Shown: positions 39,001 to 45,000 of the stretch, in pieces
Layout: every line of letters starts with the position of its first letter
How positions within the stretch are numbered: position 1 is the first letter of the stretch
Assembly: GCA_963751275.1 (NCBI GenBank)
Contig: CAVVTZ010000011.1
Span: forward strand, 64,001 to 128,000
Source of the DNA: an uncultured Gemmatimonadaceae bacterium
GTDB taxonomy: Bacteria > Gemmatimonadota > Gemmatimonadetes > Gemmatimonadales > Gemmatimonadaceae
DNA: 64,000 nt
Direction of reading: 5' to 3'
Made by a program: the position numbers

Positions 39001-42000
39001 GCTGCGCAAGCAGCTCGCGCAGGCGCGCAAGACGTTCGCGGAGGCCTCGAGTCGCTAGGGGAGCGGAGTCCTAACGACGCGGGGCGCGGGGCTCGGGACT
39101 CGCCGCGCTGAACGAACGGGACGCGATCGTCTGTTCTCGCGTCCCGCGGCGCGTCCCGAGCCCCGCGTCCCGAACGTGACCTAGCCTTGGATCGGCAGCA
39201 CTCTGACGCGCTTGCCCGTCGCGTTGAAGATCGCGTTGCAGACCGCTGGCGCGATCGCCGGCAGCGCCCCTTCGCCGATCCCCAGGGGCGGCCCGTCGCT
39301 CGGAACGAAGTGCACGTCAATGGCAGGCGCCTCCGCCATCCGGAGCGCGGGGAAGTCAGTGAAGTTGCCCTGCTGCACGCGGCCGTCCTCCACGGTGATC
39401 TTCTCCATCAGCGCCGCCGAGAGCCCGTAGATGATCGCGCCCTGCACCTGCGCCTCGGCGCCGCTCACGTTCACCACCGTCCCGATGTCCGCGGCAGCGA
39501 CGACGCGATCGACCTTCACCTTCCCGTTCGCATCGACGGTCACCTCGGCGACTTCGGCGACATAGGCGCCGTTGTTGTGGCCGCCCGCGAGACCGCGGCC
39601 GCGGCCGGCGGGCATCGGCTTGCCCCAGTCGCCTTTCGCCGCGGCGAGCTGGAACACGGCGCTCATGCGCGCCGGATCGTACGGAAGACGCCGGTCGACG
39701 GCGGCGGGCTTCGCGAGCATCGCGAGCCGCATCTCGAGCGGATCGCGCTTGGCGGCGTGCGCCACCTCGTCGAAGAAGCAGTCGATCGCGAAGCTGCTCG
39801 ATGAATTGTCGATCGCGCGCCACTGGCCGAGCGGGATCGTGGGTGCGAGTCGCGAGGCCTCGAGGCTGAAGTTCGCGAGGAATCCCGAGGGGAAATCGCC
39901 GCGGTCGGTCTCGCCGCGGCCGGCGGGCCACACTGTTGCACCGGCGGGCATTTCCCATTCGAGGAACTCGCCGCGCGCGGCGTTGATGATGTGGTACGTC
40001 CACGCGAGGAGCGCACCGTTGGCGTCGAGCCCCGCGCGCATCGCGAACACCGCCGACGGCCGGAAGAAGCCGAAGCGCACATCGTCCTCACGCGTCCATA
40101 CGACCTGCACCGGCGCGCCGGCGGCGCGCGAGAGGAGCGCGGCCTCCACGGCGTAGTCGGCATAGAATCGGCGTCCGAAGCCGCCGCCCGACCGGGTGAC
40201 GTGGATCTCCACGTCGTCACCGGCGAACCCGAGCGCGCGCTCGACAGCTTGATGCACTCCCTCCGGGTTCTGGCAGGGCGCCCACACCGTGCAGCGGGTG
40301 CCGCGCACATCGGCCACGCAGTTCATCGGCTCCATCGGCGTGTGCGCGAGGAGCGGCACCTCGTACACCGCCTCGACAACCTGCGCGGCGCCGCGCATCG
40401 CGGCGGCGACGTTGCCGTCGGCGAGCTGCACGGCATCGGCGGGTTTCGCGGCCAGCGCGAGCGCCTGATCGCGCATCTTCGAGGAACTCACCGCTGCTCC
40501 GGCACCTGGCGTCCACTCGATCGCGAGCGCCGTCCGCGCCTTCATCGCCGCCCACGTGGACGTCGCGAGCACCGCGACGCCATCGCGAGGGCGCGGATTA
40601 TCCTCGCCGAAGCTCGGGAGCACGCTGGCGTCGATCGGAACGACCTGCTTCACGCCGGGCATCGCGAGCGCCTTCGCGCCATCGAACTTGGCGACGCGCG
40701 CACCGTACGTCGGCGCGCGCTCGATCGACGCGACGAGCATCCCGGGCACCCGCTGATCCAGGCCGAACTTCGCGCTGCCGCGCACGATCGACTCGGCGTC
40801 CACGGAAGTCTGCCGCGTGCCGATCAGGCGGTAGGCGCTCGCGGGTTTGAGCGGCACGTCGGCGGGCACGGGCAGGAGCGCCGCGGCGGCCGCGAGCTCG
40901 CCGTAGCCCAGACGGCGTCCCGTGGACAGATGGATCACCTGTCCGCGCTCCGTGCCGCAATCCGAGGAAAGCACCGACCACTTCGCGGCGCCCGCGGCGA
41001 CGAGCAGCGCGCGCGTGGTCGCGCCGGCCTGGCGCATCGGGTCCCAGCTCAGGCGCACGCTGCTGCTGCCGCCCGACCATTGCCCGCCGTAGCGGAGGGC
41101 GAAATCCGCCTGCGCGATGTGCACGCGGCTCCAGTCCGCGTCGAGTTCGTCGGCGATCATCATCGGGAGCGACGTGCGCGTGCCCTGGCCCATGTCGGGG
41201 CGGGGGACGGTGAGCGTCACCGTGCCGTCGGGATCGATGCGAATGAAGGGATCCGGCTCCCACGGGGCGATGTTCGGCTGGCCCGCCAGTGCGAACGCGC
41301 GCGGGATCGAGATCGCGACGATCATCGCGCCCGCGGCGGTTCCGCTCACGCGCAGGAATTCACGGCGGTCCAGCCCGCGCGAACCGTCGCTCACTTCGCC
41401 GCTCCATTCGCGCCGGCCGCGCGATGGATCGCCGCGCGGATGCGCACGTACGTCCCGCAGCGGCAGATATTCGTCATCGCCGCATCGATCTCCGCATCGG
41501 TCGGATGCGGCGTGCGCGCGAGCAGCGCCGTGGCGGCGAGGATCTGTCCGGCCTGGCAATAACCACACTGCGGGACGTCCTCAGCGATCCACGCGGCCTG
41601 AACGGCGCTGAGCCCCTTCGCCGTGGCGAGCCCTTCGATCGTGACCACCTTGTGCGTGCCGATCGCCGAGAGCGGAACTTGGCAGGAGCGCGCGGGCTGG
41701 CCGTCGAGGAAGACCGTGCACGCGCCGCACGCGCCAATGCCGCAGCCGAACTTGGTCCCCGTGAGGCTCAGGTCATCGCGAAGGACCCAGAGCAGGGGCG
41801 TGTCCGCTGAAGCAGAGACGGTGTGCGGTTTTCCGTTGACGGTCAGCGACGTCTTCATCGGGCGGTCTCTCAGTCTTGGAGCGCTCGGGAAGCGGGAAGC
41901 GGGAAGCGGCGCGGGGTGCGATAACAGCCGGGGATCACGCGTCCCGTCCGTTCATCGCGGCGCTTCCCGCTTCCCGCTTCCCGCGCCTCGGTCACACGAA

Positions 42001-45000
42001 GTACTTAGTCACCACGGGAAGCAGCGAGGGATGTTTCACCAACGCATGAGCGAACACCCGTCCAAGCGTGCGCTTCTCGGATGGGATTCGATTCACCGTA
42101 GAAGCCAGCGCGTTGAAGAAGGAGTCCTCGAACTTCCCCAGCGCATCCTTCAGCCGGTGAAAGCGTACGTGGTCATCGCCCAGCAGTTCCATCCAGGCGT
42201 CGTGGTACCCCTGTAAGCGATCGGCGTTCGTGCAGCGCGCGGCCAGGGCGTCGGCCGCGGCGTGCGCCGCCAGCCGCCCCGCCTTCATCGCGTTCACGAT
42301 GCCGCCGCCCGAGAGCGGATTGATCATGTGCGCGGCATCGCCGCACACCAGCAGCGCGTCGGTCACGGTGCGCTTGATCGTGGGATGCACGATCACGCCG
42401 CCCACGGTCATCCCGGTGATCGTGGCGCCCGGGAAATCGCGCGCGACGTACGCATCGAGATGCGCGCGCGCGGAACGACCGCCCGCACGGAGCGCCACGA
42501 TCCCCAATCCGACGTTCGCGTCGCGCTCGCTCTTCGGGAAGATCCACGCATACCCGCCCGGCGCGATCGCCTGTCCGAAGTGGAGCAGGATCGCGTCGGG
42601 ATCGAAGTCGATGCCGCTCATCACGTACTGCGCACAGCTCTCCATGTCGCGCGCCGGCACGCGGGTGTCGAGCCCGGCCCAGCGTCCGGTCATCCCCTCC
42701 ACGCCATCGGCCGCGATCACGATGCGCGCCACCACGTCTGCGTGGCCGCGCGGCGTCGAGACCGCCGCGCGCCAGCCGCCGCCGTCGCGCGAGAGGCCGG
42801 TCACCTCGGTCGCCACCCGGATCTCCGCTCCCGCCGACCCCGCCTGCGCGGCCAGCGCCGGCTCGAAGCGCGTCCGGTCCAGTACGTAGCCGACATCCCC
42901 CTCGGCCACCCGCACGTCCGTCCCGTCGGGGGCCCGGAGGATCACCCGCGTGATCCGCCGCGAGACCCAATCCGCGCCCGCCGGGTCGATGAACTCCGAG
43001 AGTCCCGCGCTGCCCACTCCCTCGCCACAGCGCACCGGCGCGCCGATCGCCCGGTCGCGCTCCACGAGGAGCACGCGCGCCCCTGGGGCCAGCGTGGCGA
43101 ACTCCCGGGCCGCGATGAGCCCCGCCGGCCCGCCGCCCACCACCAGCGCGTCCACGCGCTCCACGGAGGCGCTCACGCGCGCAGCACCATCGTGAGCGCG
43201 GCCACCGGACAGGGCGCGATGCACTTCCGACACCCCGTGCACGCTGAGTCGTCAATGTGGAGACCGTCGCGCCGCAGCGAGATCGCGCCGGGCGGGCAGA
43301 GGGGGAGGCAAAGACCGCAGGCGTCGCAGGTCGCGAGCTCGACGATGGCCAGTTCGGTGGCACGCGACGGGGGCATGCGGGGACGATGTCCGAGCGCGCT
43401 AGGTCGTGTCAAGGCAATGTCTTGTCGCAGTCTGCTTCCCCTGCTAGGTTAACTCCCGTCAGCGCCCGTGTTCGTTCCAAAAAACTCGAAGCACCCAAGT
43501 CCCTCCCACACAATCGATGCGCTGGCCGCTCTTCAAACCCGGTTCCTTCTTTCCCGCGAACGCGATCGCCGTGGACCTCGGCACCGCGAACACGCTCATC
43601 TACGTGAAGGGTGAAGGGATCGTGTTGAACGAACCGTCGGTCGTCGCGATCGAACGGTCGAGCGGAAAAGTGAAATGGGTCGGCCTCGAAGCGAAGCGCA
43701 TGCTCGGCCGCACTCCCGAAGGCGTGATCGCGGTGCGCCCGATGAAGGACGGCGTGATCGCGGACTTCGACGTCACGGAGAAGATGCTCCGCTATTTCCT
43801 GACGTTGATCATCGATAATCACATCTTCAAGGTGAAGCCGCGCGTCATCGTGTGCGTCCCCTCGGGGATCACCGAGGTCGAGCGCCGCGCGGTGCGCGAC
43901 TCCGCGCTCGGCGCGGGCGCGAAGGAAGTGTTCATGGTCGCCGAGCCGATGGCCGCGGCGATCGGCGTCGGGCTGCCCGTGGAGACGCCCACCGGCAACA
44001 TGGTGATCGACATCGGCGGCGGCACCACCGAGATCGCGGTCATCGCGCTCTCCGGCATCGTGAGCGACACGTCGATCCGCACGGGCGGCGACGAGCTCGA
44101 CATCGCGATCGTGCAATTCATGCGCAAGAACTACAACCTGCTCATCGGCGAGCCGACGGCCGAGCAGGTGAAGATCCAGATCGGCAGCGCAGCGCCCGTG
44201 GGCGACGAGCGTGAGATGGAAGTGCGCGGCCGCGACCTCGTGAGCGGCATCCCGAAAACGGTGCGCGTGCATTCGAGCGAGATCCGCGAGGCGATCCAGG
44301 AGCCGATCCAGCAGATCGTGGATGCCGTGCGCCGCGCGCTCGAGATCACGCCGCCGGAGCTCGCGAGCGACATCGTGGATCGCGGCATCGTCATGACCGG
44401 AGGCGGTGCGCTCATCCGCGGCCTCGATCTGCTGCTGAGCCAGGAGACGAACCTCCCCATCCATGTCGACGAGGATCCGCTGACGTGCGTCGTTCGCGGC
44501 ACCGGCCGGATCCTGGATGACGAGGAAAAGTACTGGAACGTCCTGCAGACCTGACGCGCCGTGCCCCCCGTCGCACGCACGATCAGCCGTCGGGATCTCA
44601 TCTTGCTCGCTGCGAGCCTCGCGCTGTCCATCGCCGCGATGAACCTCCCGGAGCGGATCAAGGACCCGTTCGCCGCATCGCTCCGCCGCACCCTCCTCGC
44701 GCCGCTCGTCTCGCTCCAGCACGACGCGGAGCTCGCCCGCATCGCCTGGAAGACGCGCGAGGCGCGCACGGAGCTCGCCGACAGCGTCGCGATCCGCGCG
44801 CTCGCCTTGCCCGGCGCGGAGAGCGAGAACGCGCGGCTGCGCCGCATGCTCGGGCTCAGCGACCGGCTCCATTGGGGATTCGTCTCGGCGGAAGTGCTGC
44901 AGGGACGTGGCATCGGCGATGACTATACCGTGACCCTCTCCGCCGGCGGCCGCGCCGGCGTGAGGCCGTTCAGCCCCGTGGTGGTCGCCGAAGGCCTCGT

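Follow-up and report, generated by a model that had tools for sequence, protein, structure and literature searches.

A ferredoxin-reductase gene pair in Gemmatimonadaceae as the probable saturating step of an archaeal-type ether-lipid gene set lost repeatedly from fixed gene slots

The ferredoxin-reductase pair and its slot

The window, meaning the whole 64,000-nucleotide stretch of DNA that was analyzed, carries two adjoining minus-strand genes where an earlier survey of this genome had placed them: a 2x[4Fe-4S] ferredoxin of 67 aa (window 43173..43376; two CxxCxxCxxxCP motifs, Pfam Fer4) and a FAD enzyme of 394 aa, a euryarchaeal-type geranylgeranyl (DGGGPL-like) reductase (window 41992..43176). 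The TGA of the ferredoxin gene and the GTG start of the reductase gene share a four-base overlap. To the right, mreB (window 43517..44554, plus strand; NF010539 over cut-off) is divergent from the ferredoxin gene, which lies 74-195 bases upstream of it in all 32 positives examined. The left landmark of the slot is a plus-strand gene outside the pathway that we take, from its sequence, to be ald, encoding alanine dehydrogenase (window 33881..34996). It is followed by a NodB/CE4 polysaccharide-deacetylase-family protein (window 35059..35913, plus strand; PF01522), the start of which is uncertain and probably further downstream. The gene order is pnp-M16 peptidase-ald-[deacetylase, reductase, ferredoxin]-mreB.

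The reductase passed the geranylgeranyl reductase family model TIGR02032 (186 bits, curated cut-off 158.8). The survey's finding that the DGGGPL reductase model ranks first and MenJ far lower also held (NF041160, 195 bits; MenJ model NF045655, 43.6 bits against a cut-off of 700), yet NF041160 stayed below its own cut-off of 780, as did NF041080 (123 vs 580) and NF041385 (81 vs 700). These three models are lineage-specific, so the missed cut-offs lower the case that the protein is a member of those groups rather than the case that it works like them. Identity to 17 archaeal reductases was 35-43% (best 42.7%), and bacterial reductases of the FCB group were closer, at up to 45%. The closest solved structure was PDB 3oz2 (E 4.6e-55); the FixC entry 7koe was a distant match. 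In the 3oz2 alignment the protein carries the archaeal DGGGPL reductase motif set listed in passages of PMC10821996 (GxGxxG, the catalytic Cys in RC[GA]E, RxxFD with RxxF[DE] allowed, PxxYxWxFP and LxGD), and GxGxxG, RCGE, RxxF[DE], PxxYxWxFP, GDAA and GGGI are retained in 20/20 Gemmatimonadota reductase rows. These sequences form a separate clade (support 99) outside the methanogen reductases.

Adjacency of the ferredoxin proved more general than the survey had counted: it is immediately upstream of the reductase in 30/30 family loci fetched (own locus included) and 16/16 sister-family loci. The pair also occurs FCB-wide (46/55 other bacterial loci) and is common in Methanomicrobia, and a small 4Fe-4S protein adjoins the reductase in 15/17 archaeal loci. 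A model of the ferredoxin-reductase complex scored 0.92, with 0.01 for the best of three controls; its runs share at least 98% of contacts, and partner pLDDT is at least 87. Of solved pairs, 51 of 78 attained the mark set for this score, as did 2 of 108 mismatched pairs. The value could stem from resemblance to a flavoprotein-ferredoxin pair of known structure, given the distant FixC match (7koe). The Methanosarcina acetivorans reductase works with its own ferredoxin (Isobe et al. 2014, cited in PMC9385802). That enzyme and the Thermoplasma acidophilum reductase (3oz2) share motifs, an adjacent 4Fe-4S protein and 35-43% identity with the Gemmatimonadota reductases, whereas the latter have a bacterial host and a clade of their own and are known here from sequence. 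The ferredoxin is likely the dedicated electron donor of the reductase.

Two unlinked synthases and coordinated loss

GGGPS (C8:103145-103876) and a frameshifted DGGGPS (C11:401513-400713), both unlinked to the reductase, were found where the survey had located them. GGGPS passed its family model TIGR01768 (126.9 bits, cut-off 113.25) and fell below the equivalog TIGR01769 (131 bits, cut-off 161.55). Its VGT loop has the group II Thr and its limiter position a Leu, both of them group IIb traits, and its closest solved relative is 4jej. Of the Tyr/Tyr/Glu residues called strictly conserved in passages of PMC9385802, both Tyr are retained and the Glu is Asp in 29/31 Gemmatimonadales sequences. 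For DGGGPS, the intact ortholog from genome G107 was used: its top models, NF009523 (146 bits) and NF009521 (140 bits), were below their cut-offs (269 and 296), the closest structure was 6m31 (E 2.7e-23; runner-up 1.4e-06), and the Asp-rich motifs NDxxDxxxD, YSxxxK and RExxKDxxD are retained. None of the three enzymes, reductase included, reaches a curated equivalog cut-off. Single-base indels in DGGGPS affect this genome and G179, and the frame is intact in 18/20 loci, including one in the same genus (G041). Frameshifts also occur in folC, hisS, proS, recA and alaS of this assembly.

We found that reductase, GGGPS and DGGGPS co-occur more strongly than the survey had reported. Among 200 family genomes, 45 hold all three, 134 none and 21 a part; among the 146 of high quality, the counts are 32, 110 and 4. 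Genome incompleteness alone predicts 46.6 genomes with all three. Outside the family, reductase, GGGPS, DGGGPS and deacetylase are held by the identical 16 of 92 genomes. With GGGPS, DGGGPS and a euryarchaeal-type reductase together in one genome, these bacteria match the FCB archaeal-like lipid gene set. The survey had described a set that comes and goes as a unit. The unit has an exception in genus g18 (3/3 genomes), where both synthases are retained and the ferredoxin-reductase pair is absent from an otherwise intact slot.

The coming and going also had to be divided: gain found no support, and the pattern is one of repeated loss from fixed gene slots. The pathway genes occupy four unlinked fixed slots. 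In 43/43 negatives with ald visible, that slot lacks deacetylase, reductase and ferredoxin. The uppP-bshA gap measures 64, 97 and 10 bases in three negatives vs 856 in one positive, the GGGPS slot is shorter by ~630-760 bases in four negatives, and that of a GT2 glycosyltransferase, described below, by ~600-670 bases in five. On an 88-genome tree the trait needs 10 changes, 8 of them forced by strong (starred) branches, and 0/500 shuffles were as low; with true labels there were 7 independent starred pairs and 0 in the opposite direction (median p 0.031). G191, a one-contig negative inside a positive genus (support 100), lacks the genes of all four slots. The best explanation is that the set was already present when the order Gemmatimonadales arose and was then lost jointly many times. 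Coordinated loss from four unlinked slots in turn argues that the genes act in one pathway.

Companion genes, pathway gaps and a proposed product

We estimate at about 0.7 the probability that the pair carries out the saturating step in a pathway for isoprenoid diether lipids, inherited from an FCB ancestor, whose genes were lost together repeatedly. By analogy with characterized homologues, GGGPS would attach a first chain to a glycerol phosphate by an ether bond and DGGGPS a second, and the ferredoxin would pass electrons to the reductase FAD for reduction of the chain double bonds. A ferredoxin-fed reductase acting on the GGGPS/DGGGPS product, as the survey had proposed, appears well supported by the co-loss, by the complex model and by a Poribacteria operon (locus L281) of UbiA-X, DGGGPS, ferredoxin, reductase and GGGPS; DGGGPS likewise adjoins the pair in two Ignavibacteria loci.

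The survey had called the enzyme set complete, which does not hold. Neither G1P dehydrogenase (EgsA/AraM) nor CarS was over cut-off in any of five positive genomes, and a recognizable GGPP synthase was found in none of three. Two Fe-ADH_2 matches checked as G1P dehydrogenase candidates are AroB. Each positive genome has two prenyl synthases, one IspA-like and one of long-chain type, and negatives are alike. The sole short-chain enzyme has a Tyr located five positions ahead of the first Asp-rich motif and a two-residue insertion, identical in negatives, which we take to be the FPP synthase pattern.

The set has companions that the survey missed, namely the deacetylase, an unlinked DPM1/ArnC-like GT2 and an optional second UbiA-family prenyltransferase (UbiA-X). 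The deacetylase has the CE4 metal-triad motifs TFDD, SHxxxH and YPFG, and no signal or membrane segment was seen in it. It is present in 61/66 family positives and 2/134 negatives (synthases absent in these 2). It usually adjoins the reductase, and part of their co-loss could therefore be one deletion. The GT2, frameshifted in this assembly like DGGGPS, has a DADGQH (DxD) motif and no membrane segment; the models closest to it describe sugar transferases of the polyprenyl/dolichyl-phosphate kind (ArnC, dolichol-phosphate mannose synthase, PpgS, AglJ). It occurs in 60/66 family positives and 25/134 negatives, and at ortholog tier outside the family in 14/14 positives and 0/54 negatives. By motifs and cytoplasmic location the two proteins fit a polyprenyl-phosphate sugar transferase/de-N-acylase pair, with all named models below cut-off. 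UbiA-X is found in 23/66 positives and 2/134 negatives and, in other FCB lineages, directly upstream of the ferredoxin-reductase pair (12 loci).

ArnC and ArnD load an amino sugar on undecaprenyl phosphate; they too are a cytoplasmic sugar transferase and then a de-N-acylase yielding an amino-sugar lipid, and ArnC structures were matched by the GT2. Pseudomonas aeruginosa GpgS/GpgD follow the same order (passages of PMC12713373) but are GT4 and COG3233 rather than GT2 and PF01522. Unlike both systems, the Gemmatimonadales genes are not in one operon, and the sugar would go to an isoprenoid diether phosphate. The companion genes suggest an amino-sugar head group. At somewhat under even odds, we propose that the GT2 adds N-acetylhexosamine to diether phosphate and that the deacetylase then strips off the acetyl to leave a hexosamine-phospho-diether, by a route that would need no CarS; the product is best read as a saturated diether phospholipid that may carry a hexosamine cap made without CDP activation. 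More tentative is the full form of this proposal, a zwitterionic hexosamine-phospho-archaeol made through the GT2 and a cytoplasmic CE4 enzyme, likewise without CDP activation, by a six-gene pathway lost in its entirety on at least seven occasions. The calculated [M-H]- is 892.70 (C20/C20) or 752.55 (C15/C15), and the HexNAc-phospho-diether intermediate would have a mass of 934.71. Pyrococcus furiosus N-acetylglucosamine-diphytanylglycerol phosphate is a natural HexNAc-phospho-archaeol of similar m/z, 934.8, but it is archaeal and retains its acetyl group, and passages of PMC3502756 argue against a direct attachment of its phosphate to the core.

Alternative readings and significance

The reductase could work independently of the ether-bond enzymes in a MenJ-like or prenyl-reductase role, with a polyprenol, a pigment or the side chain of a quinone as its substrate. 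Geranylgeranyl reductases are known for promiscuity and for their many paralogues (passages of PMC9385802 and PMC10821996), the DGGGPL equivalog cut-off was missed and g18 has synthases without the reductase. The MenJ score, in contrast, is far below that of the DGGGPL model, the L281 operon joins the reductase with both synthases, and a reductase without synthases occurs in no genus and 0/92 outside genomes (the one exception, G134, is an 82%-complete genome), which makes this role improbable. Salvage or degradation of environmental archaeal lipids, proposed for FCB GGGPS/DGGGPS in PMC6431249 (passages), would suit the absent precursor enzymes, but the presence of a sugar transferase and of a reductase paired with an electron donor of its own looks biosynthetic, and Cloacimonetes homologues produce ether lipid in E. 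coli (PMC7852524, passages); we give it very little credence. A product other than C20/C20 archaeol on G1P is unlikely but deserves more weight; its chains could be C15 or mixed, its backbone could be G3P, or UbiA-X could add a third prenyl group. In its favor, GGPP synthase and G1P dehydrogenase were not found in the positives searched, GGGPS has its Glu-to-Asp change, and UbiA-X is distributed as described. Against it, the limiter position holds Leu (I90 in FjGGGPS and V86 in MtGGGPS; PMC9385802, passages), the enzymes from Cloacimonetes take GGPP as substrate, and G1P lipids are formed in E. coli although no dehydrogenase for this is known there (PMC7852524, passages).

The head group is open to two other accounts. 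The GT2 and deacetylase may have some other acceptor, such as undecaprenyl phosphate, and be co-lost via lifestyle or linkage, the diether being headed via bacterial CdsA/PgsA, and we regard this as a serious competitor at roughly one chance in three. The GT2 is retained in those 25 family negatives, its independent-pair test was not significant (p 0.125), in the loci seen from outside Gemmatimonadota neither gene adjoins the reductase, and bacterial CdsA can substitute for CarS (PMC7852524, passages). Conversely, both genes are present in 36/36 high-quality family positives and match the set exactly outside the family, the deacetylase accompanies the synthases in g18, where the reductase is gone, and also when relocated at least 12 kb away, and the GT2, though unlinked, is cleanly absent in two within-genus losses. 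It is rather unlikely that diether phosphate serves as a minor sugar carrier, loaded with hexosamine by the two enzymes and unloaded by a membrane transferase onto lipid A, a surface polymer or proteins. The GT2's nearest relatives, its lack of a membrane segment and the missing CarS for ordinary head groups would agree with this, but no co-lost flippase or GT-C transferase was found, the screen having covered the GT2 and GT4 families in one genome pair with no search aimed at flippases, and a fully saturated recycling carrier would be unusual.

The survey overstated the novelty of the reductase-ferredoxin pair and of the co-occurrence, given how general the pair is. FCB bacteria were already known to encode digeranylgeranylglycerophospholipid reductases related to euryarchaeal ones (Villanueva et al., 2018 preprint 10.1101/448035; PMC7852524), and in Cloacimonadota GGGPS and DGGGPS are jointly patchy, with losses (10.1101/2021.10.08.463351; all in passages). 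According to PMC7852524, the Ca. Cloacimonetes/FCB set of Villanueva et al. likewise comprises group II GGGPS, DGGGPS and a euryarchaeal-type reductase in a bacterium, with no G1P dehydrogenase, no CarS and two polyprenyl synthases. In Gemmatimonadales, by contrast, the genes are unlinked in four fixed slots, and the many coordinated losses can be tested on a tree. Passages of the main texts of PMC7852524 and 10.1101/448035 do not mention the ferredoxin or describe a co-lost deacetylase and GT2. What is new here is the deacetylase and unlinked GT2 tracking the lipid set, while the core of GGGPS, DGGGPS and reductase was known in FCB; without these two genes the finding would be another case of the published FCB trait. 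Natural production of archaeal-type ether lipids has so far been demonstrated in no bacterium, the genes being known and the final lipid not (PMC7852524, passages). The GT2 and deacetylase suggest a definite head group and mass, which offers a target for lipidomics and reconstitution. If hexosamine-phospho-archaeol were indeed the product, it would be the first concrete structure to seek in a natural bacterial "mixed membrane", and some diether lipids taken for archaeal markers could be bacterial.

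The ferredoxin-reductase pair and the two synthases

The window corresponds to C11:64001-128000 of the genome under study (3.1 Mb, 83% complete). Its minus strand encodes a 67-aa ferredoxin (window 43376-43173) whose gene overlaps by 4 bases that of a 394-aa flavoprotein reductase (window 43176-41992). The reductase passed the TIGR02032 cut-off (186 vs 158.8 bits), and its best model was the DGGGPL reductase NF041160 (195 bits, cut-off 780), with MenJ far below at 43.6 bits; the coordinates and model ranking in the survey's finding were thus confirmed. The closest solved structure was 3oz2 (E 4.6e-55), and the reductase motifs were all conserved in 20 of 20 Gemmatimonadota rows. 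A TIGR02032-like paralog at C7:496018 was rejected as an ortholog, being under the cut-off and scoring 49 bits on NF041160. The modeled complex of reductase and ferredoxin scored 0.92, and none of three controls exceeded 0.01; the contact agreement was at least 98% and the partner pLDDT at least 87. The mark used for this score is reached by 51 of 78 solved pairs and 2 of 108 mismatched pairs, and the score may be owed to likeness with solved flavoprotein-ferredoxin pairs.

The GGGPS (C8:103145-103876) is a group II enzyme with 4jej as its closest structure. In 29 of 31 Gemmatimonadales sequences (that of the genome under study and those of fetched loci L033-L044 and L178-L196) Y[LV]D[AT]GSG stands in place of the motif YLEAGSG, with Asp for the catalytic Glu. 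The GGGPS of G017, a genome having synthases only, lies in two frames (C3:179969-180665), reflecting either decay or assembly error. The DGGGPS (C11:400713-401513), for which an intact ortholog has 6m31 as its nearest structure, is broken by single-base indels. Single-base frameshifts were also found in folC, hisS, proS, recA and alaS (window 50030-54109; locus L001:3159-7832), and these show that the assembly is error-prone. Because such housekeeping genes are equally frameshifted, and because 18 of 20 DGGGPS orthologs have an intact frame, we rejected the reading of DGGGPS as a pseudogene and consider its indels likely to be assembly errors. The N-terminal part of DGGGPS is 50-54% identical within genus g1, vs 91-92% for the reductase (the genome under study, L045, L046 and L048). 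The middle third of the protein diverges fast within this genus, while both ends remain similar.

Co-occurrence of the set and its loss from fixed slots

The same 200 family genomes were queried with each protein, and in each case the matches separated into two tiers, one high and one low. For DGGGPS, where the 173-aa N-terminal part served as query, the gap between tiers was the narrowest of the three. Reductase was found in 58 genomes, GGGPS in 53 and DGGGPS in 63. All three were present in 45 genomes (46.6 complete sets were predicted from incompleteness), none in 134 and a partial set in 21; among the 146 high-quality genomes these numbers were 32, 110 and 4. In a phylum sample of 92 genomes from outside the family, the three genes were confined to the identical 16 genomes, comprising 15 of 53 in sister family f2, the single genome of sister family f3 and 0 of 38 in other orders. 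The co-occurrence described in the survey's finding therefore holds at this larger scale. Left out of the counts here and below were a GGGPS match of 34% (G145), DGGGPS matches at or under 38% (with three of 28-31% in family f10), reductase matches at or under 36% (including G231), deacetylase matches at or under 40%, and GT2 matches at or under 41% within the family or with E >1e-30 outside it. Four positives from unpublished genomes are in the family counts (G007, G033, G034 and G134), and G007 and G034 are also in the tree; the conclusions are independent of them, since 34 of the 36 high-quality positives come from outside this group.

We took the mreB region from 97 genomes, about one per genus plus the discordant ones, some genera having no listed place. 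Ten of 98 regions with <1500 aligned positions were kept out, giving a tree of 88 rows that includes the genome under study and seven f2/f3 outgroups. On this tree the trait requires 10 changes, of which 8 are forced by starred branches, and shuffled labels were as low in 0 of 500 cases. The true labels gave 7 independent starred pairs among the 81 family rows; on such pairs reductase and either synthase never changed in opposite directions (median p 0.031).

The genes occupy fixed slots: ald-[deacetylase, reductase, ferredoxin]-mreB, in the same order in f2; alaS-hypothetical-[GGGPS]-PHP; and bshA-[DGGGPS]-uppP. The uppP-bshA gap measures 64, 97 and 10 bases in three negatives vs 856 in a positive, with more lacking besides in G024, and the GGGPS slot is ~630-760 bases shorter in 4 of 4 negatives. 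In G191 (one contig, 94%), a negative inside a positive genus, every slot is closed. The genes that we take to be bshA, uppP, a PHP phosphatase and gmhA flank the synthases; they were rejected as members of the set, being present in negatives.

The survey's finding held that the set comes and goes as a unit. Joint loss is borne out by the forced changes, and the exception is genus g18, where 3 of 3 genomes retain the synthases and deacetylase and lack ferredoxin and reductase; in g43, the sister genus of g18, the synthases have been lost and 2 of 4 genomes retain the deacetylase elsewhere. The "comes" half was not supported: the fixed slots, closed in negatives, point to loss and not to gain. 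Recent transfer from a methanogen and a series of independent gains were both rejected on account of the fixed slots, the presence of the set in two sister families and the Gemmatimonadota reductase clade; the reductase tree was built quickly, is rooted on a long branch and is silent on ancient origin. Coordinated, repeated loss, at four unlinked slots when that of the GT2 described below is included, is proven.

Two co-lost sugar enzymes and a candidate head group

Slot analysis revealed a PF01522 deacetylase (window 35059-35913), present in 61 of 66 family positives (genomes carrying at least one of the three lipid genes), the five misses all being <80% complete, and in only 2 of 134 negatives. 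Outside the family it occurs in the identical 16 of 92 genomes as the lipid set, and on independent pairs the association gave p 0.031. Its motifs are intact, its start lies close before the catalytic domain, and no signal or membrane segment was seen in it. In the genus of the genome under study ~6 kb (window 36000-41900) separate it from the reductase; this insertion holds a SET-domain protein (36508-37074, minus strand), a DinB-family protein (37505-38185), a molybdopterin oxidoreductase pair (39181-41858, minus strand) and two proteins without a Pfam match. A Ser/Thr protein kinase gene lies at 28246-29775 on the minus strand, before rpsO.

The GT2 and GT4 genes of the genome under study were compared with those of G062, a positive, and G191, a negative. 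DGGGPS, which served as control, and one GT2 were the only ones without a counterpart; the remaining flagged rows were flanking housekeeping genes and were dismissed. This GT2 (C11:293401-292759), frameshifted in the genome under study, lies in the slot plsY-gpsA-merR-[GT2]-surE, as we presume its neighbors to be. It was found in 60 of 66 family positives (36/36 of high quality) vs 25 of 134 negatives. Outside the family, where 68 of the 92 genomes were tested, its ortholog tier comprised 14/14 positives and 0/54 negatives, and all 10 loci seen had it in the same slot. That slot was found closed in 5 of 5 negatives; on independent pairs the association of the GT2 was not significant (p 0.125). 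The nearest models, none of them over cut-off, were PpgS, AglJ, dolichol-phosphate mannose synthase and ArnC; a literature search on PpgS found no paper. Searches of the ESM Atlas gave family-level names only.

A second, uncharacterized UbiA-family prenyltransferase (C11:397425-398285, between coaX and groES) matches the UbiA-X family weakly (E 6.7e-08), and that family precedes the ferredoxin-reductase pair in 12 other FCB loci. We rejected it as a core member because it occurs in just 23 of 66 positives (and 2 of 134 negatives). G024 and G022 still carry the gene as a relic.

By homology to characterized enzymes, GGGPS and then DGGGPS would form a diprenyl glycerol phosphate, and the ferredoxin would feed the FAD of the reductase, which would saturate the chains, as reported for M. 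acetivorans (cited in PMC9385802). The positives have one IspA-like and one long-chain prenyl synthase only. Neither G1P dehydrogenase nor CarS was found over cut-off in five positives, and the consulted text of PMC7852524 describes Cloacimonetes as likewise without both. The polyprenyl-phosphate-type GT2 might place a HexNAc on the free phosphate of the diether, and the deacetylase might then unmask its amine, so that CarS would be bypassed. We put this capping and de-N-acetylation route at slightly less than an even chance. From the passages seen, Pseudomonas glucosaminyl-phosphatidylglycerol is made by a similar two-step route, but with different enzyme families (PMC12713373), and HexNAc-phospho-archaeol is known in nature from Pyrococcus (PMC3502756).

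Range beyond Gemmatimonadota and relation to published work

A profile of 29 distant homologues led to 80 named loci. Ferredoxin lies directly upstream of reductase in 15 of 17 archaeal and 54 of 63 bacterial loci (8 in Gemmatimonadota and 46 of the 55 others, with one locus too short), the latter from Ignavibacteriota, Bacteroidota, Kryptoniota, Cloacimonadota, KSB1, Calditrichota, Marinimicrobia, Latescibacterota, Poribacteria and a few others. In a Poribacteria operon (L281:5643-9926) the gene order is UbiA-X, DGGGPS, ferredoxin, reductase, GGGPS; in two Ignavibacteria loci DGGGPS adjoins the pair. Given this linkage and the 46 of 55 loci, the pair is therefore an FCB-wide module. The L281 operon is downstream of skp- and lpxD-like genes, and its reductase clusters with methanogens and two Chloroflexota; the pair in two Chloroflexota bins (L287 and L290) branches with Methanomicrobia. 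L228 (labeled Acidobacteriota) and L233 (labeled Syntrophomonadaceae) are near-identical, nested in Ignavibacteria and probably misbinned. Downstream of reductase the neighbors are lineage-specific (L268:9167-9766, L257:2546-3478 and L292:9106-9702): Cloacimonadota have a CTP_transf_1 protein at 5 loci and a GT2 at 5, and KSB1-like genomes have a CDP-alcohol phosphatidyltransferase at 5 loci. The enzymes that add the head group may thus vary from phylum to phylum.

As far as the consulted parts of these sources extend, GGGPS and DGGGPS are listed for all 12 FCB phyla including Gemmatimonadetes (PMC6431249), the Cloacimonetes enzymes are active and accompanied by euryarchaeal-like reductases (PMC7852524), such reductases occur across FCB (10.1101/448035), joint presence in Cloacimonadota is patchy, with loss (10.1101/2021.10.08.463351), and reductase-ferredoxin synteny is described in Euryarchaeota (PMC9385802, PMC10821996). 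The survey's finding had presented the reductase-ferredoxin pair and the co-occurrence as new; with FCB reductases and patchy joint loss already published, this claim to novelty goes too far. For the trait in Gemmatimonadota, our literature search, with most subscription journals and the PMC7852524 supplements outside its coverage, gave only the phylum-level table of PMC6431249 and papers on unrelated subjects; Gemmatimonadetes reductases or ferredoxins may already be listed in those supplements. No report linking the deacetylase or GT2 to the lipid set was found in the literature searched. The finding is real and well supported, and its core adds one more instance to an FCB trait already in the literature. 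What is added here is its coordinated loss at four unlinked slots, together with two co-lost sugar enzymes that suggest a head group.
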